From: Elsinoe ampelina
Taxonomy: Eukaryota
DNA length: 64,000 nt
Reading direction: 5' to 3'
NCBI GenBank assembly: GCA_010093995.1
Contig: ML992509.1
Span: 1,139,850-1,203,849, forward strand
Below, in pieces: positions 33,370 to 54,446 of the stretch. The notes under the pieces were generated by a model, which was not told the origin of the DNA, ran no database searches, and saw only the letters and a list, made by a program, of their open reading frames with translations. Positions within the stretch are counted from its first letter, which is position 1, and each line of letters opens with the position of its first letter. The translations under genes and the position numbers were made by a program.

Positions 33370-33490
33370 TATTATAATAGAAGACTAGTATAGCTTCTCT
33401 AGTACTAAAGAACTAGTACTAATAAGTTAGCCTACGTATAGTAGATAATCGGTTATTATAACTCTCTGATCCGATTTGCTAGTTACAACA
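33370..33490 (+). mobile_element. Solo LTR of the same Copia family as 37777-50383 (internally deleted, RIP-mutated)
   Basis: Reverse-complement match to the LTR at 50242-50383 (TATTATAATAGAAGACTAG...GATCCGATTTGCTAGTTACAACA), lacking about 20 bp; flanks ATCCG/GGGTT give no TSD. Confidence 0.9.
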
Positions 33491-33678: not shown

Positions 33679-34684
33679 ATGACCTTCGACCGAATAGGAA
33701 CCGTTAAGGCGGTCAAGAGGCATTATGATCTGCTCGCAAGGGCGGCATACTTGCCCGCCTCAGACATCATCTCACCACCACAGGACGGTTGGGGCGATGA
33801 CGACATCGACACTGCTTTCTTGCGCGACCTAGGGAGGAGCGAGGAAGTGATAGATCTGGTGCGACATCTGCCATATATCAAAAATGAACCGAAGGACGAC
33901 TTTTGGCCTATCTATCTGGAGAGTAGATGCGTGAGCTACCTAAAAAATGGTGTTCCCATGCGAAATGTGCCTGAAGTCAAAAGACGTGTCGCAGACCCGA
34001 ATTTAGGCGATTATGGTCTGATGCCTTTCGACCAAAAGCCGCCTCCGGAATTCGTGTGCCTCTCCCTCGACATTCATGGAATCTCCTGGCTCGTGGACAC
34101 TGCGAAAGGGCTGCTGTACCCCGATGCAGGGATCTTCTACGACCATGCGATTGACGCCGAAACTGCTGAGAGAGAGCCATGGCGGAGTAGCAGGGCACGG
34201 GAGATCATCTCGTATTTTGACGAGGTTTATGGTCAGATTGAGTCTCTTGCTTTGATACCAGTTCCCCGAGGTGGAAACCAATTCCCCTCGATCCTGGGCA
34301 ATACCAAAGGGGAATTCGTGAGTTCTCATCAGGGAGCTAAATACAACTAAGGCACTGATTCGAGGTCAGAGTTCGCTGAAACGTGTCTACAAAAACCATG
34401 GATGGCCATCCAATTTCGATCGAGAGGCTTGCATCACAGAACTCAGAACTGCATATCCGGAAGCTCTGCGCAAGATCTGGGACAAGGCGGAAAATGCCCC
34501 TTCCGATCAGCAGTCGTCACCTTCTGGAGACGAAGATGACCCCGATGACTCAGACTTTGAGATTGATTCAGAAGACGAAGCAGACTCTGTCGTCGAGGAT
34601 GCGGGCTTGCGCGATGACGAAGACATGGACAGTGACGAAGTAGAAAAACTACTGGAAGAAGCTGGAAGTGACCGTGATCTATAG
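33679..34684 (+). CDS. Cytosolic hypothetical protein, possible SUKH/SMI1-KNR4-like fold, acidic tail
   Basis: ATG 33679; intron 34318-34369 joins to SSLKRVYKNHGWPSNFDREAC and a D/E-rich tail ending at TAG 34684. Motifs PPQDGW, EVIDLVRHLPYI, PPEFVCLSLDIHGISWLVDTAKGLLY, ISYFDEV; no signal peptide. The gene model is solid; the fold is inferred. Confidence 0.75.
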
Positions 34685-34710
34685 CACTGCATCTCAAAAG
34701 TCCACAACAA

Positions 34711-36828
34711 CTACCCGCTGGTTCCAGCACAATACCAATATCCTGGCCATATCTGAGTATCACAATTCTCTCCATTGGCTCCAAGCACAGGATTTAAAGC
34801 ATAGAATCGTGACGTTTCTAGCCCGTTGTCTGTCGCTAGCTTCCAGCAATAGTCTCCAGCCTGAGCCTGGATAAATTTGTTGCAGTTTGCTGGAATGTTG
34901 GATTGTGTTTGGGTAGGCTTTGGTAACGCTGCTGTTGAGCTTGGGAGACTGGTAATTGTGGGATCGGCTGGTGGCGACGAAACGCCAACACAGTAGAAGT
35001 ACCCTGGCCAGATCTGTGTGTCACAATTTTCACCATTGGAGCCCAAGACCGAGTTCCACTTGTAGAACAGTGACGGCTCAATGCGGGCATCGCTCGCGAG
35101 CTTACCACAGTAGTCACCAGACTCTGCCTCAGTCCATTTGTTACAATCCGTTGCAATACCACTCTGAGTTTGTGTGGGCCTCGGAGACGACGGACCAGAG
35201 GTCGCCGATCCAGAAGTCGTAGCAGTGACCGTCCGAGTCGTTTGCGTGGGCATGGTATCACCCCCACTCACACCGACGCAATAGAAGTAACTCAGCCAGA
35301 TTTGGGTGTCGCAATTCTCTCCTCTCTCTCCAAGGACAGGATTCAACTCGTATAGTCTCGTGGTGAGAATAGAGGCATCATTCGCGATTTTCCAGCAGGA
35401 CGCTACCGTCGAGTTGGCCATAACGTAGCGATTACAGCCCGGGGCTATCCCTTCCTGGATGAGTTTAGGCGGTGTCGACGGGTTTTCAATGATGGGTAAG
35501 GACGCTGTAGAGCCAGGTCCTCCTCGCACGGACCGTTGCCGTCTTGAGGCAAGGACGCCGCTGGGGGAGGATCCCAAGAACCACCGGGGCGGCTACACAG
35601 AAATTAGTATGACAAAGACACTGGATGCGGGGGTCTCGTACCTGATGCAAATCTCTTGACCTTCTCTCAAGAAATCACAAGCCCCCATGATGTTGGGGTT
35701 CCAGACGGCGAGTTGTGCGGCGTTGACAGTCGTGTTCACATTCGATATCCGTCGAGCAATGCTCTCACTGCACAGTGTCAACGCATCTGTCGTTTAGCAA
35801 AAGTAGCCTCCTTACCAGGTCGCTCCACTCTCAACTTTTAGCAGATTGCATTGCAGTGGTACGCACACAGGCGTTTCGGAATAACATTCCAAAGATCCGG
35901 TCACCTTCAGCAGCTCCCCTGTCGCTACTTGGTATTGACGAGCCAACTCGTTACAAGCCTCGAAGGGTATCCAACTGTTTGCCACTAATACATCGACCTC
36001 GCGTGATGAACACGCCGTAGGGGTCGCTGTCGCTACGTTCGTAGTAGGCGTGATAACCCCGTCCCCAAGTGTGGCAGTTGGATACACTGGGAGTGCTCTC
36101 GTTCGTATGTCACCTAGTGTGGTTTGACAGACGTCCTCAATATCCTGCAACTGCGCCACCAAGTAATCCGAGTAATCGGTGTCTGGCAGGAAGTCCGACA
36201 TCACCCTTGCGTGAAGCAGCTTGACGAAGCAATCCGAGCAGAGAAGATCGTCGCTGTACAAATTTGCCATACGTCTGTCCGATGAACTGACGTTACCAGG
36301 AATTATACATTGTGGAAGACTGGGATTTGCTGTACAGTCGGCTTGAACCACGTCGGAACCGGTCCATTCGTACGAATCGATCAGACACCAGCGGTCCGAT
36401 GACTGTAGGCATGCAATATTGAGACCGTCTAAGAATCTGGCACTGATCGTTTGTGCCGGAACATATCGACCTCCCATTCTAAGCTCCTGATCGACGCAGT
36501 CGCTGTCTACTGTTTCCTGCCAGGACTGAGCACTTGCTGTGCAAGAAGATGTGCACAGAGTCGATGCATCCGATGGTTCCCACCAGACCTCATCGACCTT
36601 CACTGTCCATTGGAAGAGATCTTGGTCGCACGCTACGGTGGTGTTCCTTTCATCCCTTATCAGCAGATACATGTATTGGATGGTTAGTGCTTACAATGCA
36701 GCGATACATTGCGTGCTGATGCTCAGTATCTCTGAAAGTGCTTCGGGATCAACGAGAGGCCATAATTGAAATGATGATGCGGAAGATGACAACGCCGCTA
36801 GCAGAACAAGCCGACCACAGGCCTTCAT
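34711..36828 (-). CDS. Secreted multi-LysM (CBM50) protein, about 5 fungal-type LysM domains, 4 exons
   Basis: Signal peptide MKACGRLVLLAALSSSASS; Cys-rich N-terminal domain; LysMs including QLAVWNPNIMGACDFL...ICISPPGG and three C-terminal repeats ending NPVLG..GENCDTQIW.GY.YC; GT-AG introns. Confidence 0.93.
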
Positions 36829-37636: not shown

Positions 37637-37776
37637 CTAGTAGTCTATCTTTAGACTATTATGCACTTAGAACTATAGTTCTTAGCTTTACTATAACGAC
37701 GAGCCTCTATAGATCTTCACCGGAGCACTTTAACTCTATTAGGCAGGTATAGAGTAGCTAAAAGACATGCTAATTG

Positions 37777-40700
37777 TATTGTAACTAGCAAATTAGATCG
37801 AGAGATATATATATTATTTAGAGAGTTACAATAACTAATTTATCTACTATACGTACGCTGACTTATTAGTGCTAGTTCTTTAGTACTAGAGAAGCTATAC
37901 TAGCCTTCTATTATAACACTCTCTCTCTAATATAGATTATTAAAACTAGAGAACTATCCTATTATATATAAGTAAAGTAATTAGCTTATTACTTTATCTC
38001 TTTATAATTACTTATAATTGTTAGTATTAGCTAATTATTAGTAAGAATTTACTATTAGTTTAGCTTATAATTGCTAGTAATAATAGTAACTATTAATAAT
38101 AGCTAGGTAGCTATTATTTATATAAATAGACTAGCTTATAAGTCTTAATTAAAGAGATATAAGTATCTAACTAGCCTCTTTATAATTTCTNNNNNNNNNN
38201 NNNNNNNNNNNNNNNNNNNNNNNNNNNNNNNNNNNNNNNNNNNNNNNNNNNNNNNNNNNNNNNNNNNNNNNNNNNNNNNNNNNNNNNNNNNNNNNNNNNN
38301 NNNNNNNNNNNNNNNNNNNNNNNNNNNNNNNNNNNNNNNNNNNNNNNNNNNNNNNNNNNNNNNNNNNNNNNNNNNNNNNNNNNNNNNNNNNNNNNNNNNN
38401 NNNNNNNNNNGTTACCTAGTACTTCTAATGTTAATTATAATACTACTATAAGACTAATTACTTATCTTAATACTCTTAGTAAGTAGCTATAAAGTATTAA
38501 TAGTACAAGCTAATATTAATAGCCTAGTTAACTTAGACTTTAACTTAATAGTTAGCCGATATAATCTAGAATACTCTCCTTAGGCTTAGGATAATTAGTT
38601 ATTATAACTATACTAACTTATATTCTATCTAGAGGTCTATAGTAGTCTAGGCCTTTAGTATCTATAGTATACACCTAGTAGTTACTAATTCTATTCTAGT
38701 TAAGAATCTAACTAAGTAAGTTAACCTTACTAGATCTACTAACTACTTTACTACTTTAATAGCTTCTAGTGCTACTAGTAGAGTAGTCTACTATAGTACT
38801 AATTACTATACTAAGTATTAGGGATCTAACCCTAGTAATAATTAGAGTAAGGATAGGGGTAGTAAGTTTAGTAAGTATATTACTTTACCTAGTTAGCTTA
38901 ATAAGGCCTATACTTACTATACTTATAGTAACTAATATACTAGATGTTCCTTAGCTAACTATACTCTAACTCTAAGGCCTATTAGCTCTCCTAAACCTAT
39001 AAGGACTCTAAGTAGCTTAAGGGTTATTACCTAGCCTATTCTATATAGCCTAATATACCTACTAATAGAGCTCCTAAGGTCTATCTCTTTTAGTAGTACT
39101 TTACCTTAAAGGTTCTTAATAAGGGCCTATATACTAGAGGCATTATTAGGTATAGTTAATACCTTAATAACTTATACTAACTCTTACTACTTTATAGTAG
39201 TCCCTATAAACTTTATAGATCCTACTAACCTAACTACTACTAAGGTTTATAACTTAGCTACTATAGTAATAAACTATATAGTAGAGCTTATAAGAATTAT
39301 AGCTACTAGCTACCCTAGTTAGCTTTCTCCTATTTATACCTTTATACTAGGCCTAGCACTAATAAGGCATAGTAGGTCTAGATCTAACACCTCTATAAGG
39401 TCTACTAGTAGTAATAAGGGAAGAGGTTCTCCTTCTATAAAGAAGTAATTAAAGGTAAAAGATAGATAGGAGTTATTAAAGGTAATAATAGTACTAAGTA
39501 GTAGATATAGCTTAGGTATAAGTAGCTAGTAATAGAGTTATAATAGCTTTTTCTTTCTCTCTTCTTAATAATAAAGTAATTTACTTTAAGCTTTAGATAA
39601 ATAAGATAGCTTAATAAGTAGTAGTAGTATAAATAACATACTAAAAATAATAATATATATAAAATCTAAATAAGTATATAGTATAGATATATACTAAGTA
39701 ATTAGCCTTTACTAATTAATTAAGAATCTTATTAAGAGACTTAGGCTTTATAAGTATATTAGCTAATTACTAAGTTATATTAATATACTTAAGCTTAATT
39801 ACTCTAAGTTTATACTACTCTCTATAGTAATAATTCCTTAGATTAATATACTTAGATCTCCTTAAGTTAGTATAATCTCTTATAAGTTTAATAGCTAATT
39901 TATTATTAATAAAGACTATAGTTAGGCTAAGGTAAATATTAGTAAGTAGCCTAAGTTTAATAATAAGATTTCTTAACTAATTAATCTCTCTATAGGTCTT
40001 AGTAAGGGCAAGGTATTTAGCCTTAGTGCTTAATAATATAATAATCTTCTATAGCCTTAACTTCTAAATAACTAGTACACTAAGTATATAAATAATAGTA
40101 CTAGATATAGATCTTATAGTTAATCCGTCTCTAGTAAAGTCTAAGTTAGAGTAGGCCTTAATTATATTAACTAATAGTCTATTAGTCTTCTTAAAGGTAA
40201 GGCCCTTTATAATAGTTCTATTAATATACCTCTAGATCTATTTAGCTATAACTATATAAGCTATAGTTAGATTCTAAAGGAACTTAGCTAGGTAATTAGT
40301 AGTATAGCTAATATTAGGCCTTATATTATTAGCTAGATATTATAATTTACTAATAATCCTATTAAATGTCTTATAGTATTAAGCATTAACTTAGCTATTA
40401 GTTAGTTTATANNNNNNNNNNNNNNNNNNNNNNNNNNNNNNNNNNNNNNNNNNNNNNNNNNNNNNNNNNNNNNNNNNNNNNNNNNNNNNNNNNNNNNNNN
40501 NNNNNNNNNNNNNNNNNNNNNNNNNNNNNNNNNNNNNNNNNNNNNNNNNNNNNNNNNNNNNNNNNNNNNNNNNNNNNNNNNNNNNNNNNNNNNNNNNNNN
40601 NNNNNNNNNNNNNNNNNNNNNNNNNNNNNNNNNNNNNNNNNNNNNNNNNNNNNNNNNNNNNNNNNNNNNNNNNNNNNNNNNNNNNNNNNNNNNNNNNNNN

Positions 40701-43700
40701 NNNNNNNNNNNNNNNNNNNNNNNNNNNNNNNNNNNNNNNNNNNNNNNNNNNNNNNNNNNNNNNNNNNNNNNNNNNNNNNNNNNNNNNNNNNNNNNNNNNN
40801 NNNNNNNNNNNNNNNNNNNNNNNNNNNNNNNNNNNNNNNNNNNNNNNNNNNNNNNNNNNNNNNNNNNNNNNNNNNNNNNNNNNNNNNNNNNNNNNNNNNN
40901 NNNNNNNNNNNNNNNNNNNNNNNNNNNNNNNNNNNNNNNNNNNNNNNNNNNNNNNNNNNNNNNNNNNNNNNNNNNNNNNNNNNNNNNNNNNNNNNNNNNN
41001 NNNNNNNNNNNNNNNNNNNNNNNNNNNNNNNNNNNNNNNNNNNNNNNNNNNNNNNNNNNNNNNNNNNNNNNNNNNNNNNNNNNNNNNNNNNNNNNNNNNT
41101 AGTTTACTAATAACTTTAGGTAGTAGTATTATAAGGTCTTTACTCTTATAATTAGTAATAATAAGTTACTTCCCCTGTTTATTAACAGGTTAAGGATCTA
41201 GTTTAGGATGTTAGTATTACTCCTCTTATTCTTTAATAGGGGTAGATAATTGTTGTTTATATCTAGGGATTAAAGGGTAGTTAGATATTAGTTGTTTAGC
41301 TTAAGTAGTTTATAGATTCTTATAACTAAAGAGTAGTTAATTATAGCTATAGCCTTAATTATAATTACTACTAAATGTCTACTCCCCCTAAAGCTATAAA
41401 GCCTTAGGTTGTTATATCTATAAGATATATAGCTATTTAATAACTTATATTACCTAGTCTTTATAGACTATATTCTTATTAAATGTTATATAGGGTAATA
41501 TAATAATCTTTCCCTTCTAGGCTTACTAAGCATAATACTAATAGAGTATCTAGATAAGGTAATTAGTTATTAAGTTATTCTATATACTAATATACTAACT
41601 AAGTAGTACTCTAGCTTAGAATTTATATAATTTAGAAANNNNNNNNNNNNNNNNNNNNNNNNNNNNNNNNNNNNNNNNNNNNNNNNNNNNNNNNNNNNNN
41701 NNNNNNNNNNNNNNNNNNNNNNNNNNNNNNNNNNNGTGTTTAGTAATAATAGTAAGTATATATAATTATAAAGCTTAATAATTAACTTCTTACCTTTACT
41801 ATTAGTTAGAGTAAGCCTAACTATACTAACCTCTATATTAAGTAGCTTCTTTATGCTAATAGCCTATTTAAATTTAAGAACACCTTTATATACCTTAATT
41901 GTTAAGAACTATAACCTGTCTTTAATAAAGTGCCTTAATATACTAGAGTTATAGATTGCTCTATTCTTATGTCACGAACTGTCTAAATATAGCCTACACT
42001 AGTAGTCTAAGCTAAGCTAAGAACGAGGTAGTTCTACTTCTATAGTAGTATAGCACTAAGGTAAGAGTCGGAGAAGGTATATCTTATAGATAATAAAGTA
42101 TAATTAGATAGTATTATAAAGGCTAGCCTTAGCAATACTAGTGTTTACTATCTAGATAAGGTTAACTATAGTACTTACATAAGGTAAGGACTACTCCTAT
42201 ATATATATGTCCTTTACTATATACTCTATGTGCTCTATATGCTCCGTAGCAAGAGTTAGAGGCAATATAGAGTATATGTCCGCTAGTAACCTACGTACTC
42301 TATAGTCCCCGGGGTAGAGCTACTAGAGAAGATAGAGAACTAGGTAAATGTCGGGCTAGATTATATAATAACCTTAGTAGTTTAATTGGTCCTAACATCT
42401 CTACGCTTTAGCTATCCTACTAGTTCGTAACATTACTCTCCTTCCTTAATCGAGTTGTCCTAACGAGTAAGTATCCTTCTTTGTCCTTGCGCGCTATATA
42501 CTAAATATGCCTCCTAGTCGTTAAAGGTATAGTAAATCTAGTATATCTATACGAAAGAACCTCTCGGAGTTTATTAAATTATTTAGGACTAATATGCTAT
42601 AGGCTTACTCTCGTTATAGGTCGAAAGAGCTAGACTATAAAGTCTATATTTAGTTAGGTATTTATAGCTAGTATGTTATAAGTAACTACTTAGGTTATAA
42701 TATTTAAGTAATAAAATCGAAATAGTAGCGTCTCTAGTCTAAGTATATTCGTTTACAAAAGGAATTAGTTATAGCTAAGGCTACTAGAAAGAAAGCTAAA
42801 GAAGCTTATAAAAAGGCAAAAGAGGCTTATTAAAGAGCTATAGGCGATAAGCTTTATCTACGCGAAGAGATATAAAAGTTAGAGGACAAGGCGGAGAAAG
42901 TAATCTCTCTAGAAGAGACTCGTACTTAAGTCTTAGAGTAGGAGGAAATACTATTGTTAGTGGATCCTGTCCTACCGTAGGACTAGTAATTATTTATACT
43001 TAACTCTAATTAGAGTTCCTTACTTAGTAACAATTAAGGTGCTTCTATTAGGGTAGCGATCTTTCTTAGGCATTCTTGTTTTTGTTTAGTGTTTAGAGTA
43101 CTAGGTCCGTCTAGTTAGTTTGCTTAGAATAGGTTCTCGATCTAGTAATCTAGGATTACTTACGAGGTAAGGTGCTCCTCTAGTTCCTATATTACTTCGC
43201 TATACTAATGTCCCTTCTAGTAAATAAGATAGTAGCGTTTTTCTTTTATAAGTTTATAACGTAAAATCCTTTCGATCTTATACCGTAGCTTCTATGTTTC
43301 TTTATCTAGTTCGATAGGTCTAGGTATAGTATTCTATAGTGCTTTCTCTAGTAGTAATATATAAAAGACTAGATAGATCCTTATATGTCTTAGTAGTTCT
43401 AGTTTATATACGTTCTTGTTTTTCTTTTCTAGGATCTTAAAGAGTCTTAGTTTAGTATAGTTAAGTTTCTTACTTAGTCGTTTCGTTTTAATGTTTTTAC
43501 TAAGGAGGTAAACTTTCTCTCTCTCCTATAGAATTAGTCCTGCAATTCTCTTCTAGTTAGCAAATTCGGCTATTCTTTATAATATAAATACTATATTATA
43601 GTATAGCTAGTTATATAGTTTCTTAATATTAGCTACTAGTATATTAGCGTCCTTAGATATTAGCTTAATTCCGAGTATGTCGTAGTATAGATCCGGGTGT

Positions 43701-46700
43701 ATTCTATAGTTTACGTAGAATAGTAAAACTCTATTTGCTAATTTTCTATTGTTAATAGCAAGCTCCGCGAGTAGTAATAGTGTCGCCTATAAGTCTTACT
43801 TATAGTTTAGGTAGCATCGTAGGTACTACTCTAGTACTTAATTTACCCGTTTAGTTTGTCCGTCTATTTATAGATAAAAGAAGGTTAATAGCTTATGTTT
43901 GACTCCTAGTAGGTCTATAAATAATTGCTAGAATTGTGACGTAAATAGCTTATCCCTATTAGTTATTAGGTCTCGTAGTACTCTATATTATAAAACAATT
44001 GTTTAGAGGAAGGTAAAGGCTATATCCTTAGTAGTTACTATTATCTTATATAGTACAAAGTAGTAATACTTTATAAACCTATCTACTAGAACTAGAATGC
44101 TATTATACTTTACACCTATAAGAGGTTCTTCTAATAGTAGTAAAGGTTCTATAAAGTCTATCGTGACCGATTACTATAGTTTATCTAGTAGTAGTAGGGG
44201 TTATAATAGGCTATATAGCTTATGTCGTAAGTGCTTAGACTTATAGCATATATCGTATATAGTAATATACGTCTTAACATCGTTTCGGAGTCTCTTCTAT
44301 AGGTAGTTTTATATAATAAGTTTAATAGTCTTATCGATTCTACTATGCTCTACTATTAGGTTATTATAGTATATTCGAATAACTTCTTTCTTCTATTCTT
44401 GCGTAAGCTCCTAGGTAAGGCTATATAACTACTCTACCTTTAGGTGCTTATAGACTAGAGCGCCGTCTTACTACTTTAGTATAGAGGCCTCTATTATTGT
44501 TATATTCTTTAAATAATCTAGTTGTCGGCTAAGAGTGTCTACTTTACTATTCTTTAATCCCTTAATATAGTAGATCTAAAAGTTATAGCTTATAAGTGTT
44601 TCTAACTATCGAACTTGTTATCTATTAAGAACCTTAGTTATTGTCTAATATAATAGGTTCTTATAGTTAGTATAGACTTATATAGGTAAGGTTATTCCTT
44701 CTAGGTATACTCTCTATTCGTAGAATGCCTTTATAATTGTAAGTAACTCCTTGTCGTGTATGTCGTAGTTAAGTTTAGGTCTAGTTATTTTTTATAAGTA
44801 GTATACAATTAGGTAGCGTTATTCTTCCGCGTCCTTCTATACTAGAAACACTTCTATCGTAAAGTCTAAGGCATCTATTTCTAGTAGTACTTATTAGTCT
44901 AGGTTAAAGAGTGCTAGGATAGGTGCTATTATAAGTCTAAGCTTTAGCTTCTTAAAGGCCTACCTACATTTCTTATTAAAGACAAATCTAGTTTCTTTCT
45001 TTATAAGGTTAGATATTAGCGTAGCTACCTTAGAGAATCCTTTAATAAACTTATAGTAGTAGTTAAAGAACTCTAGTAGCGCTTAAACCTCCCTAACCGT
45101 AGTAGGTTCTAGCTAGTCGTTTACTAACTTAATCTTTCTCGAGTTAGGTCTAATACTGTTAGTAGATATAATATAGCCTAGAAATTATATCTTATGTTTA
45201 TAAAACTCGTACTTAGAGAGCTTTACTAGTAGGTCTTTTTCTTTTAGTTTCTATAGCACTTTATAAATATGTCCTATATATTTATCGTACGTCTTTAAGA
45301 AGATAATAATATTGTCTAAATATACTAAGACAAAGTTATTAAGGTATTCTCGTAGAGTGTTATTAATTAACTCTTAGAAGGTTATAGGAGCGTTAGTTAA
45401 CCTAAAGAGTATAACGAGGTACTTATATAGACTCTATTACGTTCTAAAAGCTATCTTCTACTCCTTACTCTCCTTTATTCGTACTTAATAATAGGCGTCT
45501 CTAATGTCGATTATAGTAAACTATTTAGCTCTAAGTAGTCGGTCTTAAAGTTCGTCGATCCTTAGTAGAGGATAGCGATTCTTCCTAGTAAGTGTATTAA
45601 GTTTCTAGTAATTAATACATATTTATAACGTCCTATCCTTTTTAGGTGCAAAAAGCACTTCGTGCGTAATAGGTGATTTTAATAGTTATATAAATTCTTT
45701 AAGTAAGTACTTATCGATGTAGTTCTTAAGGACGTTCTTCTCTTATTTCGATAGTAGTATAAGACCTTAATAGTATGTTAGGGATTTACTCTCTTTAAAG
45801 AGTATTTTATAATTCTATAGTTTATGTTAGAGTAAGGCTATAATACCTTCTCTTTCTTTAAACAAGTCCTTAAAGTCTTTATATTCTAGCGGAAGTGCTT
45901 AATTACTTATACTAGCGATAGCTCTAACTATTAGTTGTACCTATACTATTCTTATAGTTAGTATCCGCGGAGCTAATTATACTCCCTATATTCTATAATT
46001 ATACTTAGGGAATTCGAGTGTTTCTTTAATCTAGTCTACGTCTAGGTTATGTTATTAAAGCTAGTCTATGCTAAGTACTATATTATACTACATGTCTACT
46101 ATATCGATCGATCGTTTTTCTATATATGTTTCGATTTTAATTATAACATTTTATAGTTCCTAAGTAACTTTCCCGTCCTTCTCTATAGAGGTTCTATTCG
46201 CTATAGTAAGTAGGTAAGGTAACTCCTTCTAGTGCTAATAAGGTTTAAGCTAATTAGTAACTATTATAGAGATATAGCTATAGTTAGCTCCTAAATCTAT
46301 TATTGCTCTTACCTTACTCTCTTATATTTCGACTTCTAGTATAAAGTAGTTTAATATATAGATCTTTATTATATTAAGGCTTTAGCTAGTGTTATTGTCT
46401 TGCCTTATTAGGCGACAACTAGCTAGTTTTTTATCATTATAGCTCCTTAGATAAGTAGCTAATCCCTTCCTACACGTATCTACTATTAGTACTATATCTA
46501 TTAGGTAAGTTATATTTTGTCGCTGTTTAATATAGTAAGGTAAACTTCTAGCGCCTAAGTCCCTTAGTAACTATAAAGTCTAATAATTCTCTACTAGTTA
46601 TACTAAGTAGTGTTATACACCTATATTAGTATAACTATTCCTTCCGGGTATAGCTAGGCATTAGTATTAAAGACGAAAACAAGTTATATAGATTCGTCTT

Positions 46701-49700
46701 ATAGTGTCCTATTCTAGTAGTAGGTGTATATTATTATATAATTCCTCTATATCTCTATAAGGTATACTTTAAGTCGTCTACCTAGTAGTAGTATATTATT
46801 GTTATTGTTGTTATTATTAGATAAGTTCTTATCTATATTATTACGTTGTAGTTATTCGGTGTATTCTTCGTTATATTTCTCTTCGTTGCTACTGCCCCTA
46901 GTATAGTTATAGTTAGTAAAGCTACACTAAGTATATTCTCTTACTTAGCTATAGGGGATAGTACTACCTATTTCGATTACCGAGAAGTCTATAGTATATT
47001 TAAGACTAATAGCGTCTTCTCCGAGTATGTCGTATAAGTAGATAGTATAGTACTATTTACAATTTAGATTTATACATTTCTAGAGCGACATATAATATGC
47101 CTTTCCTTGTAGTACGCTATAAGAGCTAAAGGTAAGGCTACTATATTGTCGCGTAGCACTTGTGTCCTAATACTTCGTCTCGATAATCGTATATTAGTAA
47201 TTGTCGCTAACTACCTTCTAAGGTTAGTTACTATTACTACTAATTATAGGGAGCTCTTCTAGGTTAGGTTCCTAGTCTAGCTATTTTGTTAGTTACCTAC
47301 GCTTAGATAGCTTATATAGGAACTAACTAGATCCTTGCTTATCTAATAAGTGAATATAACAAGAGTTATTATAATATACTATCTATAATAGTGTCGCGTG
47401 TTAGCTTTGTTATTTACTATTAGTTATAGAGATATTAAGTATAATATCCGGAGAGAATTCTACTACCTCTCGAGTTATCGTAGACTTCTTCTATATTTCC
47501 TTACCTACGCTAAAGGTTGTTAGGTCTTCTATAGTAGTATTAGCCTTTTTCTCTACTAGCCTAGCAACTATTATATATAATCTATTAGCTAGCGCCCCTT
47601 ATTAGTAGTCTCTAGCTCGATACTTAGGTCTTTTACACTTAAAATATAAGTTGTCTTATCTATACTTCTCTCTCTCTTTTCTACTAAGGAACTTTCCTCT
47701 ATAGCCGTAGCCTTATGCCTATAAGAGGTAGCCTTCGCGTATAGTATTAAGCTCTATAGAGTCTCTATAGTTTCGGGAGGAACGCGTATATCTAGTGTTT
47801 ACCTTATATCCTCTATAACGTTCTATACGTCGTTTGTAAAGTCTATTATTAATAGTAATTATAGTGTCTACTAGTTCCTAAAGGCTATCGGGTAGCTTAG
47901 GTATTATTTAGTCTTTAACTAAGTCGCTTAGTCCTTAATAGAATACTAAGTGTTTAGTACTATTATTCTAGTCTAGATATATTATAAGTTATTAGAACTA
48001 GGAATAGTACTAGGCTATAGACCTACGTTGTTATAGTTATTAGATCTTTGTTATAGTAATACGTTCCTTATTAGATACGTTAAAGACTTACTTAATCTTT
48101 GCCTAGAAGATACTAAAGCTCTTAAAGATAGCCTTTATATCTAGGCCTAGTTATCTATCTAGGTAGCTACTTATATAAGGCTCGAACTACCCGAAGGCGG
48201 CGCCTTTAAGGTGTATCCCGGCGTAAAGGACCTTTGCTACGTCGTTAGCGTACTTATCTCTCTCTAGAGTAAAGAAGGCTTTAAGTTAAATAAGGAAGCG
48301 CCTTAAGTAGGCGTAGTTCCTATAGAAGAGTTCTACCTCTAACTTAGGCCTACTCTGTCCTTCTATACTAAAAGACCTTCTATATTCGCCCGAGGTTAAA
48401 CTAGTAGTAGATATGTCGTTAATAGTAAGCTTTCCTAGCTTACTAGCGATTGAAGATGCTAATAGTAACTTAGAGTAAGAGTTACTTATTAACCTCGTAG
48501 CGTGCTATACTATAGTAAGAGTAGTTAAAATGTTATAAACTGTCTAAACATAGCCTATACTAGTAGTCTAAGCTAAGCTAAGAACGAGGTAGTTCTACTT
48601 CTATAGTAGTATAGTACTAAGGTAAGAGTTAGAGAAGGTATATCTTATAGATAATAAAGTATAATTAGATAGTATTACGAAGGCTAGCCTTAGTAATACT
48701 AGTGTTCGCTATCTAGACGAGGTTAACTATAGTACTTATATAAGGTAAGGACTACTCCTATATATATATATTCTTTACTATATACTCTATATACTCTATA
48801 CGCTCTATAGCGAGAGTCGGGGGCAATATAGAGTACACGTCCGCTAGTAACCTATGTACTCTATAGTCCCTAGGGTAGAGCCGCTAGAGAAGATAGAGAA
48901 CTAAGTAAACGTCGGGCTAGGTTACGTAATAACCTTAGTAGTTTAATTAGTCCTAACGTCCTTACGCTTTAGCTGTCCTACTAGTTCGTAATATCTTACT
49001 ATAGGTTAAGAATAATAATATAGATACTACTACTACTCTATAGACTAGTATAATAATATTAATATTAGTGTTAGAGTATTTATCTAATTTACCTACCTTA
49101 GTAGGTTCTCTAGATTCTTTAATAGCTATTTAACCTTTAACTTTCTTAGTCTTTAACTTATTACTTTTACCTTTAGCCTTTATACCTTTATTATTTAATC
49201 TATCTTTATTATCTTTTTTGCTTTAACTCTTTAGTACTTTCTTAGAGTACTACTTAAAGTAATTTATATTAGAGTAGACATAATAAGTATACTAAGTATA
49301 TTAATCCTTAATATAACTAGCTACTCTATAAATAGGGTTTAGATTAGTTTTTCTATTATATAGAGGCTTCTATATTCTAAGAGAGCCTATTATCTCTTTA
49401 AGACTCTTCTTATAGTTAAGGCTAGATCTCTAGCTCCTTAACTATTTAGTAGTCTCTATTCCTATAATAAATATAGTCTTAATATAGTATAGAGAGAGCC
49501 TAAACTTATCTAGTTTAGTACTAATAGTACTTACTCTTTGCTCTATAGTAATAGTATATTAATAATAGTACTTTATAAAATCTTTATAGTACCTTTAGGT
49601 ATTATAACTTATTATAATTACTTTATTAAGGTTATAGATAGCTATATATAGCTTATATGAAATAATAGGTTTAAATGTAGCTTTAATAGTGTCTAGAAGT

Positions 49701-50383
49701 TTCTTTAAAGTCTTCTAAGTTATACTATAGTAAGGTCTAATAGATTTATAAATCCTTATTATAATAACACTATAAGTAATTCTATTATTCTTATACTAGG
49801 TCTTGTTCCTAACCTTATAGACTACCTTAGTACCTTTACTAGTATCTAGGGCTAGTTCTTTAGGCTTTATAACTACTAGTATCTAGTTAATATTATAAAT
49901 TATATATCTAAGTATATTCTTTTTAAGGAGGGCTACCTTAAGGGTTAATCTCTAAGTATTATAGTTACTTTCTCTCTTAAGAATCTAAGTCTTAAGCATT
50001 TTTGCTAATCTAGACATAATAATAGTAATTAGCTAAAGGCCTATTAATTTAATTAATGTAATTAGCTTATTTAAGCCGTTTAAGCTGTTTAATTAAAGGG
50101 TTAATACGGGCTACTATAAGTGTTTATCTTAATATAGCTAGTCTAGAATTTAGTATAGGCGGCTTAGTAATTCTTTTAATAATAATACGCTTAATTTGCT
50201 ATAGCTTTAAGTGCTTTTATAGAAGCGCTAGGCTTATAACCTGTTATAACTAGCAAATCGGATCGAGAGACGTGTGTATTATTTAGAGAGTTACAATAAC
50301 TAATTTATCTACTGTGCGTGCGCTGACTCATTAGTGCCAGTTCTTCAGTACCAGAGAAGCTGTACTAGCCTTCCATTACAACA
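37777..50383 (-). mobile_element. Ty1/Copia LTR retrotransposon, RIP-inactivated, interrupted by a nested Gypsy and three assembly gaps
   Basis: 142-bp LTRs at 37777-37918 and 50242-50383; TSD AATTG on both sides. PBS GGTTATAAGCC is the RIP form of GGTTATGAGCC (half-tRNAiMet type). RIP-reverted protease YDSGASRHF (~41950), RT NNTRPDI (~40320), RNase H SKHIDLRNH...ADILTKP (~39750-39860). N gaps at 38191-38410, 40412-41099 and 41639-41735. Confidence 0.93.
41970..48993 (-). mobile_element. Ty3/Gypsy chromovirus-type element (copy 2), full length, nested in Copia
   Basis: Reverse-complement homologue of 288-7263; 463-bp LTRs at 41970-42432 (3') and 48531-48993 (5'); perfect TSD TCTTA at 41965-41969 and 48994-48998; inserted just upstream of the Copia protease motif. 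Confidence 0.97.
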
Positions 50384-50818
50384 AATTGTCCAAGGGTCCA
50401 CTTCCACGGCGCGGGTCTTGGCAGGCACAGACACCACCTTCAGCTCCGCTACCAGGTTTATCTCCAAACCATGCTGGATCTGCAGACACATGTGTGCATC
50501 GAGCCACACCTGCCTCAAAGGGGACAATGATCACGAAATTGCAATCTCCTCGGCAGTCGCTGCGCGCTTCGGTAGGCTAGTCTGGAACCACCTCTCCGGC
50601 AACGACAATCTCGGTGGAACCGGTCAAGGTATGAGCACGAATGCAATTCGTTGAGACGCGCAACGCACTACGGCGCATAGGAGGCCGGCCTCGCTCGAGA
50701 TATGTGATATCCTAGGTCCTTCTCCCTGCTGGCCATTTCCCTTCAAAACTGTCATTTCACTGTCCGTTCTCAGATCAAGGCCTTCCTGTGATCTCAATCA
50801 CTTCGTTTTCCGATCACC

Positions 50819-53800
50819 ATGAATCGTTCTTTCAAGGTGACGGTGCTTCTCTTTCTGCTTACTCCCTTGCTAGGCAGGGGAAGCTGTCAGTCCTTCTTCA
50901 ACGTCAACTCTGCGTTCGCACTCCTGTCCACCGACCTTGCGGCCGAAACTTTGGACCTTCCGATTGGAACGTGCAATGCTCGAACCCCATGTCCCAACGG
51001 AGCTTGCTGTAGCGGTGTAAGTGCAGATGAATCGTGCTTCGAGGCCGCCGCCACTCATGCTCTGTCAGGTCTCAGGTCTATGCGGCTATTCACCATCCGA
51101 ATGTGGAGCTGGCAACTGTACATCAAATTGCAATGCTAAAGCTGAGTGCGGCGAGTTTGGTACTCCTGGCAAGCAGAATTGCCCTTTGGGCGTATGCTGC
51201 TCCAAGTTCGGGTTGGTTCCTTCCACGAATGGCCGCTCCTCCAGTCATTGAGTCAACATGCTAATCTGTGCTCTTGGCAGTTTTTGCGGCTCTACGAAGG
51301 ACTTTTGCGATATTGATGCCGGCTGCCAGGGCGGCTTCGGAGGCTGTGGTGATGTGCAACGTCCAACATGTAGTAAAGACGCTGGTTCCGTGAGCGGTCG
51401 GTCGATTGGGTATTATGAGACCTGGGCGAACACACGACCCTGCAGCAGTGTCTCTCCCGAGGACTTGAACGTCGATGGTCTGACCCACGTTAATTTCGCT
51501 TTTGTATTTTTCGATCCTGGCACTTTCCAGATTATCCCCATGGACAGCAACGCTGGCAGCCTGTTAAGTCGATTCACCGCCATCAAAGAGAGAAAGCCGG
51601 GTCTACAGACATGGGTCAGCGTCGGAGGATGGTCCTTCAATGATCGTGAGCCACCAACTACTACGTTTGTCATCTTGGCTTACGCTTTTCACAGCCGGTC
51701 CTTACCAGAAAGCGTTCAGCGACATGGCTATGACAGCTGCAAATCGACGACGGTTTATCGATGGACTCATTACCTTCATGGAGACCTACGGTTTTGATGG
51801 CATGGACCTGGACTGGGAATATCCCACTGCTGGTTGGTTTGCGCTAATCGACGACACTCACATTATGTGACTGATGCCTCCTAGACGATCGCGGTGGGAG
51901 ACCAGAAGACCAGGAGAACTTTGTCCTGCTTTCTGAAGATATTAGGAAAGCGTTCGGGACAAAGTACGGCTATAGTATTACTCTGCCCGCATCTTACTGG
52001 TACCTTCAGCACTTCAGGCTTGCAGAACACCAGAAATATGTCAACTGGTTCAACCTGATGTCATACGACTTGCATGGCGTCTGGGATGCAGCATCTAAGT
52101 TTATTGGTCCTTACGTGGCGCCTCACACAAATATTACCGAGATCGATCAAGGCCTTGATCTACTCTGGAGGGCTGGTGTCAAGCCGGAAAATGTGGTCTT
52201 AGGACAGGGCCGTGAGTCTTATTAGTAATCAGATCGCTTGGGCTAATTAGCACAGTCTATGGCCGCTCCTTCACACTAAGTGACCCTACCTGTAACGTAT
52301 CGGATGGAAAATGTACATTCACAGGTGGGGCTAAGCCAGGAGCATGCTCGCAGGCTTCAGGTATCCTGAATCTGCAAGAGATTATTGACATCATCGACGA
52401 GAAAGGGCTCGAGCCGACCTATGATGAGCCGAGTGGGGTTAAATGTATGGCCTCGCGGTCAATACTCACAACTTGATGCTGATTGTACTACAGGGATCAA
52501 TTGGGATAACGATCAGTGGGTCTCATACGACGACGAGCAGACTCTTAACCAGAAGAGAGAGTTTGCCAACTCCAGATGTCTTGGTGGCATGATGCTATGG
52601 GCATTGGATCAAGTTGACCAACAGAAGAGCTACGCAAGGCCCCCCGGAATGACGGAAGATGAAGCGGCCGAGTCCGAGTATGTGGCTCAAGATGAAGCCG
52701 CAAAGGGAGTCTGCTATACCACGTTCTGCGATGAGGGCTGCCGGAATGGAGATCACGAAGTCTCACAGATGAATGGGCAACCTGGCGCAATTTCGACCAT
52801 GGAGCGATGTGCCGCAGGCCAATACCGCAGGCTCTGCTGCAGCAAAGGCTCCACAATGGGCGAATGTCGTTGGCGTGGCTTTAGGGGTCTCGGTCTATCC
52901 TGCCTCGGAGGTTGCGCTGAAGGCGAGATCCAGATCTCTCAAAATACGAACCATCGATCCGATAAGGAAGATCAGTCATGTACTGGTGGTACGCAAAGCT
53001 ATTGCTGTTCCAGATTCAAACCACCTCTCTCTCGAGAACAAGTGGAAGAAAAGTTCGAGGACGAGGCCGCGGACGCTGCACTCGGTGCGGCAATAGACGT
53101 GGGGACCGAATTGGCAGCCAAGGCATTTTGTCGGGCGGCCATAACAGCTGCGCTGACTCCCCTTGGTTTCATCCCCTTCATTGGTATGTCTTCCCGTGCT
53201 GATGATCAGAGGTATCAACAAATGACTCTCCACAGGTTGGATTCTTCGCTTGGCAGCACAAGCAGCGGTGCCTACTCTAGCTAACGTGTGCGCCAAGGGT
53301 ATCGCGAAGGGCGGTAAGTCGGCATTCAAGTTCAAGGGTAAGGACTACGAGGTCAAGCTCGACAAACCGCTCGACGTGAAGAACGACCGCCCGCCGCAAA
53401 GGGATCGCGATCGACCAGAGTCCAGAGATGAGAAGTGTAATAAGCCGAAGCTCGCCAAGCGACTGAGAGCTCAGACCAATACGGAATACGCATCGCGGGA
53501 CCCAGTCTTCAGAACCTCTACCAAGACCTGTGATGGAACCAACTGGGAACAAGCCTGCCTCAACTACAAGTCTGTTATAGACAAGGGAAGAGTACGAGCG
53601 CTCATGACCTGCCCTGGGACAACTGTTCTTGGCGACATCCGACCGTGGGTCCGGACTTGGAACCGTCAACATGACAACGCATGGGTCGCCAGGATCGGGC
53701 TAGACTGCGAACGTGATGAATGGCCGCCTGCGAGGATCATGCAGGGTCAGGGCCAGCAATGGATTCGCCTGATTCCAGCAGGACAGAACTCGGGAGCCGG

Positions 53801-54446
53801 CCGGCTGATTAGAGGGGTGTGTCCAGACAAGGAGGCTGAGAGAGAAGTTGGTCGAAGTCCAGCCCGCCAAGTACAAGATGAAGGTGGATGCCGCGATCGT
53901 GCCACCTACGTCGTGACGGTCACAACACAAGTTACCAAGCAGCTCCTCTCAATCGAGTTCCGTGGCGTCAATGCTGGCGGCGACTATGGTATCAGCGCCA
54001 ATCCGTGCTGGCCGAGAGGTATTGCGGAACCTGGATTCGCTCTTCTGACCGACGACGACTATTACGATGACGTGCCGATCGCAGTGTTATCAACCACATC
54101 TCTGTATGCAAACCCTCCTATGCGAAGACGCCGAGCGAAACGGGGTTCCTTCTTCGATATGGAAGAGGTTCCTTTGTTGGACGGACCTGCAGCTTCCAAC
54201 ACCACCGATGTTGCAGCAGAAGAAACTTGGGACGGAGTGGTGGATATCCCGTGTGAAGAAGATAATTGCATCAAGGAGATGGAGGAGTTGGGTATACTCT
54301 CTTTGCCTCATGCAAATACTGGACTGAAGACTCCCAAGACAGTAGATGCAGTGCAGACGTCCTCCGCATCTTGGTCCACTGTCCGGACCATAGCGATGGC
54401 TTCAGCGACTGTGACAGGGGCTGTCGGAGTAGCCACAATGGTGTAA
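50819..54446 (+). CDS. Subgroup-C (killer-toxin-like) GH18 chitinase with CBM18/hevein domains and a C-terminal NucA/NucB-like nuclease motif; 8 exons, about 1,090 aa
   Basis: Signal peptide; [14 protein letters not shown] and [14 protein letters not shown] hevein repeats; GYYETW, THVNFAF, SVGGW, intact [27 protein letters not shown]; Cys-rich repeats; hydrophobic segment; CERDEWPPA...QNSGAG. All seven GT-AG introns splice to an open frame. Confidence 0.93.

Follow-up and report, generated by a model that had tools for sequence, protein, structure and literature searches.

A predicted SUKH-fold gene, convergent with a LysM gene in Elsinoe ampelina, as a possible immunity-type member of a LysM-chitinase cassette

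The window (the whole 64,000-nt stretch of DNA from the grapevine fungus Elsinoe ampelina that was analyzed) carries a gene, tail-to-tail with a multi-LysM gene, whose product is predicted to have a SUKH-like fold and is best read, at a probability of about 0.4, as an immunity-type member of a LysM-chitinase-nuclease cassette. Whether the gene is a functional member of the cassette at all we regard as evenly balanced, and that its product is the cognate antitoxin of this chitinase's nuclease-like tail as doubtful. The firm part of the analysis, and apparently a new one, is that predicted models assign a fold to a large family of fungal proteins so far unannotated: a literature search (subscription papers lay mostly outside its coverage) found no description of the family or of a SUKH-LysM-chitinase link. 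The features discussed are collected in Table 1.

TABLE 1 Features of the SUKH-like locus and its surroundings, in window coordinates
Feature	Position	Strand	Evidence
Lone copy of the LTR of the element below, RIP-like mutated, ~190 bp upstream of the SUKH-like ATG	33370..33490	-	
SUKH-like gene, exon 1 (213 aa), predicted SUKH core inside	33679..34317	+	
SUKH-like gene, intron (52 nt, phase 0, GT..AG: GTGAGT...TCAG)	34318..34369	+	Spliced contigs
SUKH-like gene, exon 2 (104 aa): Y..HGWP..F.REAC helix pair, then 68-aa acidic low-complexity tail, stop	34370..34684	+	
Gap between convergent stop codons (26 bp)	34685..34710	.	Crossed by spliced contigs
Multi-LysM gene, four exons, no catalytic domain found	34711..36828	-	Pfam LysM E 6.7e-7; spliced joints
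LTR element, AT-rich, RIP-like mutated, between the LysM and chitinase genes	37777..50383	.	
CBM18-GH18 chitinase (1,086 aa), secreted, transcribed divergently from the LysM gene; no LysM domain found	50819..54446	+	
C-terminal NucB-like domain of the chitinase, between dibasic sites (AKR ... RRRRAKR), ERDE and QNSG motifs	53463..54143	+	
Rival candidate for the immunity gene: intronless, from a second Ascomycota family that is likewise unnamed, 2 kb downstream of the chitinase	56484..57167	+	

Structure of the SUKH-like gene

That the SUKH-like gene is real is practically certain. A preliminary description had placed a gene at 33679..34684 on the plus strand; these coordinates stand, but the span holds two exons and a 52-nt intron rather than one ORF. 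Contigs from four of the seven listed runs were aligned to the window; none of these runs is recorded as RNA, and the spliced joints themselves are the transcript evidence. The joint 34317/34370 was present in all four runs examined, which come from three studies. The splice is independently supported because relatives carry the motif Y..GWP..F.REEC directly after the region corresponding to exon 1, and here that motif is encoded by exon 2. Given the spliced joints, the alternative of one unspliced ORF at 33679-34350, the form seen in P0003, was discarded. Both stretches singled out at the outset, PPEFVCLSLDIHGISWLVDTAKGLLY and AREIISYFDEV, lie in exon 1, and the D/E-rich tail lies in exon 2 (30 D/E versus 4 K/R over the last 68 aa). 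The reported absence of a signal peptide agrees with a crude hydropathy maximum of 1.12, compared to 2.75 for the chitinase. The distance from stop to stop between this gene and the LysM gene is 26 bp, as first given. It had been concluded that the 3' UTRs of the two genes must overlap; contigs of all four runs do span the gap, but they come without strand or transcript ends, and such an overlap is likely.

Between the window and other isolates, 9 of the 17 listed allelic differences are silent and 8 change a residue, too few to interpret. The window itself is fungal, with gene-rich parts of ~50% GC and interspersed AT-rich blocks.

An unannotated fungal family with a predicted SUKH-like fold

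Judged by sequence, the protein belongs to a large, unannotated and multi-copy family of Pezizomycotina. A phmmer search of 1.84 billion representatives at E 0.001 returned 283 matches to the window protein; among the 150 listed, named relatives include Elsinoe, Clonostachys, Hypoxylon, Apodospora, Histoplasma and Blastomyces, and nearly all carry the label hypothetical or unnamed. The Atlas gave 30 clusters with no Pfam family in common, the best three (0.95-0.96) being from Ascomycota. One relative (P0010) is a paralogue from the same species, 32% identical to the window protein; there is no second copy within the window, and at least one paralogue probably lies elsewhere in the genome. Together with this divergent paralogue, the tandem double domain seen in 12 of the 160 family proteins examined is a trait that resembles bacterial SUKH families. 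The proteins with two diverged domain copies each are P0004, P0006, P0007, P0009, P0012-P0014, P0017, P0050, P0054, P0079 and P0155; an acidic linker often lies between the copies, and one such protein is from Clonostachys rosea.

AlphaFold2 models of the exon-1 product (60 alignment rows) and of full-length P0010 (76 rows) reached a pLDDT of 88.3 and 88.5, respectively. Both models place their helices and strands in the same order, and this order agrees with the SUKH core as published: four helices and six strands, with a beta-hairpin plus a beta-meander forming a split sheet (PMC3113570). In a VIA-align comparison of the exon-1 model with 48,161 representative chains, ranks 1 to 7 were taken by seven SUKH-classed structures: Knr4 (Z 6.4, rmsd 3.8, 152 aligned), FBXO3 (Z 5.7), Syd (4.6), PSPTO_5518 (2pag; 4.2), YobK (4.1), Listeria 2icg (4.1) and BF1740 (3d5p; 4.0), the next row scoring 2.9. 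We take 2pag and 2icg to belong to SUKH. Membership of Knr4, FBXO3, Syd, YobK and 3D5P is published (PMC3113570, PMC3482391). The seven structures share at most 40% mutual identity, and their alignments cover 110-165 residues. For the P0010 model, FBXO3 and Knr4 occupied ranks 1-2 (Z 6.1; up to 6.9 against Knr4) and the remaining rows were short helical matches. Every one of these SUKH scores (Z 4.0-6.9, with rmsd 3.8-6.0 and 6-13% identity) is under the caution level of 8. Foldseek, named at the outset as a check, likewise put the same SUKH set first for both models, but no row reached E 0.001. Among Atlas clusters, two of the three nearest that bear a Pfam family are bacterial SMI1_KNR4 (0.77 and 0.76), which is a lead only.

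Sequence profiles see no such link. Neither exon matched a Pfam family at E 0.1; at E 1, no SUKH family appeared for 76 family members among the 25 of 31 families shown, and NCBIfam returned nothing relevant for 60 members. The window protein matched neither F-box nor SUKH-4, and no F-box was found in the 23 longer relatives scanned. Searches of PDB sequences with the protein and with the family profile gave nothing significant, nor did the viral fold library at E 0.001. No relative emerged from a plasmid tblastn or from pattern scans of prokaryotic and viral contigs; these were narrow searches from which bacterial absence does not follow. The SUKH-type fold proposed in the preliminary description is thus supported by structure searches on two models, and we consider it highly probable that the window protein has it. 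From the structural ranks and the lack of a Pfam match, the domain is SUKH-like by predicted fold and yet not a member of SMI1_KNR4 (PF09346).

Conservation within the family partly bears out the proposed SUKH motif P..hhsh..D..G...hhD...G.h. Over 60 family rows, P122 (57/60), L128 (58/60), D140 (55/58) and G144 (53/58) are widely kept, G134 is kept in 36/58 and F180 in 34/40, but D131, the first D of the motif, occurs in 6/60 rows. The acidic tail had been suggested to mimic DNA. This idea is unsupported because the tail is not conserved: a strongly acidic tail (a 20-aa stretch with at least 50% D/E) occurs in only 7 of 41 complete members, and it is nearly absent from a LysM-linked relative, L002, described below, whose protein ends a few residues past the domain.

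A cassette parted by an LTR insertion

The element between the LysM and chitinase genes has LTRs of ~140 bp (37777-37918 and 50242-50383, 88% alike), is bounded by a perfect 5-bp target duplication (AATTG at 37772-37776 and 50384-50388), and contains three N gaps and, nested within it, a pair of 300-bp repeats. With the element removed, the LysM and chitinase genes diverge from starts separated by 1.38 kb, and the distance from the SUKH-like stop to the chitinase start falls from 16.1 to 3.5 kb. The SUKH-like, LysM and chitinase genes sat together before the LTR insertion. This insertion accounts for most of the 16 kb that separate the SUKH-like gene from the chitinase, and the link to the chitinase cluster is therefore stronger than was first seen. 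No target duplication was seen at the lone LTR copy upstream of the SUKH-like gene. This copy and the left LTR of the element form an inverted repeat (80 nt, 94%) around the SUKH-like/LysM pair, through which the pair could be inverted.

Over the 221 aa searched, the chitinase matches an NCBI protein named from Elsinoe ampelina at 100% identity, and Pfam found CBM18 and GH18 only (P0164). The sequence suggests a subgroup C-I type, because the protein is CBM18-GH18 without LysM (PMC8042737). Its tail is NucB-like below the usual level of recognition: PF14040 matched at E 0.004-0.012 (16.6-18.2 bits, under the cutoff of 23.8), and the tail had no match among PDB sequences. The ERDE and QNSG motifs of the tail, whose D, E and N are invariant in all three sequences compared, resemble DRDE and DNRG, which are essential in Bacillus NucB (PMC5758888). 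The window domain differs from both relatives at one position, which may be the equivalent of NucB His53 and may matter for activity. Dibasic sites such as those flanking the domain are cleaved by Kex2-type proteases. The NucB family is distinct from the Anabaena-type Tox-NucA that is paired with SUKH, although both are beta-beta-alpha nucleases (PMC3113570, PMC3482391, PMC5758888). Complex prediction for tail residues 755-975 and the SUKH-like domain, run without alignments or controls, scored 0.04 versus a mark of 0.34 and speaks neither for nor against binding.

In this strain the cassette is worn: besides the LTR insertion and the changed residue in the chitinase tail, the LysM gene is out of frame in the window (its exons total 1,973 nt), with a break near 35.5 kb. 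Around position 35500, run X1 agrees with the window, and the other three runs carry another allele that differs in length at this point; the frame break may therefore be strain specific.

Neighborhoods of relatives

To what extent relatives keep similar company was judged from one metagenome scan, which gave 12 homologue loci, nine of them distinct (L005, L008 and L010 repeat others; L003, L004, L006 and L007 are interrelated at 74-86% DNA identity). Flanks measured 0.5-10 kb a side, with 10 kb on both sides only at L004 and L009. When all 12 loci were searched by tblastn with the window LysM, GH18, tail and 56484 frames, L002 was the sole match, and none of the 12 had a GH18 or NucB-like match. 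On this 1,430-nt contig (GC 0.59) a family member on the plus strand and a LysM frame on the minus strand have their stops 173 bp apart; the LysM frame is 57% identical to the window LysM over 107 aa and the SUKH-like protein 36% identical to the window protein. The contig is too short to reveal a chitinase. In a tree of 64 rows the window and L002 proteins are not sisters and fall in different subclades (a quick search with 23 of 61 inner branches open, used solely for this placement). The tail-to-tail pairing with LysM thus recurs in one of nine distinct loci. The rough chance of one LysM neighbor among eight loci is 0.4-2.5%, at 5-31 LysM genes per 10,000, the upper count being from PMC4392113 and the rest assumed.

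The other eight distinct loci, over their 0.5-10 kb of flank, have no LysM, GH18 or NucB-like neighbor. When 93 frames in eight loci were scanned with Pfam (L006 was read by eye), P450s, transporters, oxidoreductases, an F-box-like frame and a CHAT protein came up, with no LysM or GH18. General enrichment of the family beside toxin genes, as first predicted, was accordingly not borne out, and most family members stand outside such cassettes within these flanks. A 1,460-aa CHAT-domain frame (L012:1809-6188, minus strand) lies ~4 kb from a distant family member.

Proposed role and alternatives

In bacteria, SUKH proteins are proposed to neutralize toxins, and their genes adjoin those of HNH-fold nuclease toxins (PMC3113570). 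By analogy, in a cassette in which the SUKH-like gene converges on the LysM gene and is followed by the divergent CBM18-GH18 chitinase with its NucB-like tail, the SUKH-like protein would be the cytosolic, inward-facing member of three. The chitinase would be secreted and bind fungal walls, and its nuclease-like domain, released at the dibasic sites, would attack competitor cells. The SUKH-like protein would bind and neutralize a toxin domain re-entering the producer, whether its own or a related one from other fungi. The antitoxin hypothesis, a reasonable one, has two supports: the cluster as reconstructed here and a single independent linkage. A broader reading is tentative: an undescribed bacterial-style polymorphic toxin system in filamentous fungi, in which chitinases would deliver C-terminal NucB-like DNases and the SUKH-fold family would supply both cognate immunity beside the cassette and scattered or tandem poly-immunity copies against other strains.

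The strongest competitor, though we think it unlikely, is a SUKH-fold protein without a toxin role: a fast-evolving protein-binding adaptor of the Knr4/FBXO3 kind that moves among accessory regions and adjoins LysM genes because both gather in transposon-rich islands. The eight of nine loci without toxin-cluster neighbors, where members stand beside P450, transporter, oxidoreductase or unknown genes, speak for it, as does the fact that the best fold matches are eukaryotic Knr4 and FBXO3, which are adaptors rather than antitoxins (PMC3113570). The lone LTR copy next to the SUKH-like gene and the F-box-like frame directly upstream of a family member (L003:234-1841, plus strand, ~0.5 kb away on the same strand) point the same way. 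However, a second fungus (L002) has the same tail-to-tail arrangement with a LysM gene of closely similar type, and eukaryotic adaptors are described as vertically inherited and without expansions (PMC3113570), whereas the SUKH-like family is multi-copy, divergent and in part tandem.

Less probable still is an orphan immunity protein that neutralizes toxins of other fungi, the chitinase tail being inactive or covered by the product of the gene at 56484-57167. Most family members stand alone, and supernumerary SUKH genes in bacteria have been proposed to guard against non-self toxins (PMC3113570); the decay of the cassette by LTR insertion, LysM frameshift and a changed residue in the nuclease-like domain would fit as well. 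The 56484 gene, directly downstream of the chitinase, is likewise unnamed and without a Pfam match (Atlas 0.92; cytosolic-type). It was rejected as a member of the SUKH-like family at an hhalign probability of 0.1%.

Least probable, and quite unlikely, is that the SUKH likeness reflects a common alpha/beta arrangement in an unrelated family: Z of 4-7 at rmsd 3.8-6.0 and 6-13% identity with no profile match would allow it, but ranks 1-7, ahead of everything else, all go to SUKH entries that are at most 40% identical to one another and align over 110-165 residues. The second model (P0010) agrees, and the succession of helices and strands fits the published core.

Relation to known systems

With the bacterial SUKH families (SUKH-1/SMI1_KNR4, PF09346, such as Bacillus subtilis YobK, 2PRV; Syd, 3FFV; PMC3113570), the fungal family shares the predicted split-sheet core with flanking helices, the P-x-x-hh-x-L ... 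G ... hhD ... G meander with an FF helix after it, the occurrence of multi-copy and tandem forms, and, in the window, adjacency to a candidate nuclease of beta-beta-alpha type. It differs in being eukaryotic and intron bearing, in having no Pfam or NCBIfam SUKH match, in an extra N-terminal helix (PP..GW, LRHLPY) and a C-terminal GWP..F.REEC helix pair, and in that the gene is convergent with LysM and not directly downstream of a toxin gene. The eukaryotic SUKH proteins (yeast Knr4/Smi1, FBXO3, PGs2 and fungal F-box-SUKH-4) include its best structural matches (Knr4 Z 6.1-6.9; FBXO3 Z 5.7-6.1) and are cytosolic too, but identity is 6-13%, there is no F-box in the window protein or the longer relatives scanned, and in place of one conserved orthologue there is an expanded, diverged family. 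Fungal SUKH proteins have been listed as Knr4/FBXO3-type and F-box-SUKH-4 fusions, and the supplementary lists of that study could include the window family (PMC3113570). Immunity domains are reported to have been transferred to ascomycetes (PMC3482391).

Pezizomycotina also have zymocin-like nuclear killer-toxin clusters (Heneghan et al., bioRxiv 10.1101/2024.10.25.620242). These resemble the cassette in that a chitinase of subgroup C type occurs together with a LysM-only gene and a candidate immunity gene whose product is not secreted, and in being mobile and repeat associated. Theirs, however, are C-II chitinases, mostly with LysM; the gamma-toxin has a gene of its own, and the immunity gene is of the VLE type. 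In the window the chitinase lacks LysM, the NucB-like tail fused to it is the candidate toxin, and the candidate for immunity is the SUKH-like protein. No separate gamma-toxin gene was noticed among window ORFs of at least 100 aa. The available text of that study reports no such clusters in Dothideomycetes, names no SUKH, SMI1 or NucA in its main text, and states that immunity genes for most fungal chitinase-toxin groups are unidentified; the accessible part of an mGem by Heneghan et al. (PMC13556262) has nothing further on SUKH. GH18-NucA/NucB fusions do occur on yeast killer-type elements: ORF2 of the Debaryomyces hansenii VLE pDH5A, a ChtBD1-GH18-NucA/NucB fragment, has the domain order of the window chitinase, but it lies on a cytoplasmic yeast element for which no killer activity was found, and the available text does not mention SUKH, SMI1 or Knr4 (PMC8472843). 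Trichoderma tal6/tac6 pairs likewise consist of a chitinase gene of subgroup C and a LysM-only neighbor, but no third, SUKH-like gene appears in the part of the account available (PMC4392113).

Eukaryotic SUKH proteins have been viewed as conserved adaptors that left toxin immunity behind. If the immunity-type reading is true, an expanded family alongside toxin-tailed chitinases would return SUKH immunity to eukaryotic conflict, and hundreds of hypothetical mold proteins would be given a fold and a role open to testing. The SUKH-like family would also be a candidate for the missing immunity genes of fungal chitinase-toxin clusters.

Downstream genes and repeats

Beyond the chitinase, the same accessory stretch carries, 5 kb downstream, a gene for a RALF-like secreted peptide (59321-59638, plus strand; Pfam RALF E 1.8e-18), a mimic of plant peptide hormones. 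Short diverged direct repeats (54699-54800 and 60557-60657, 5.86 kb apart) bracket the 56484 and RALF-like genes, and a 300-bp element with perfect 33-nt inverted ends at 58082-58381 is probably a MITE.
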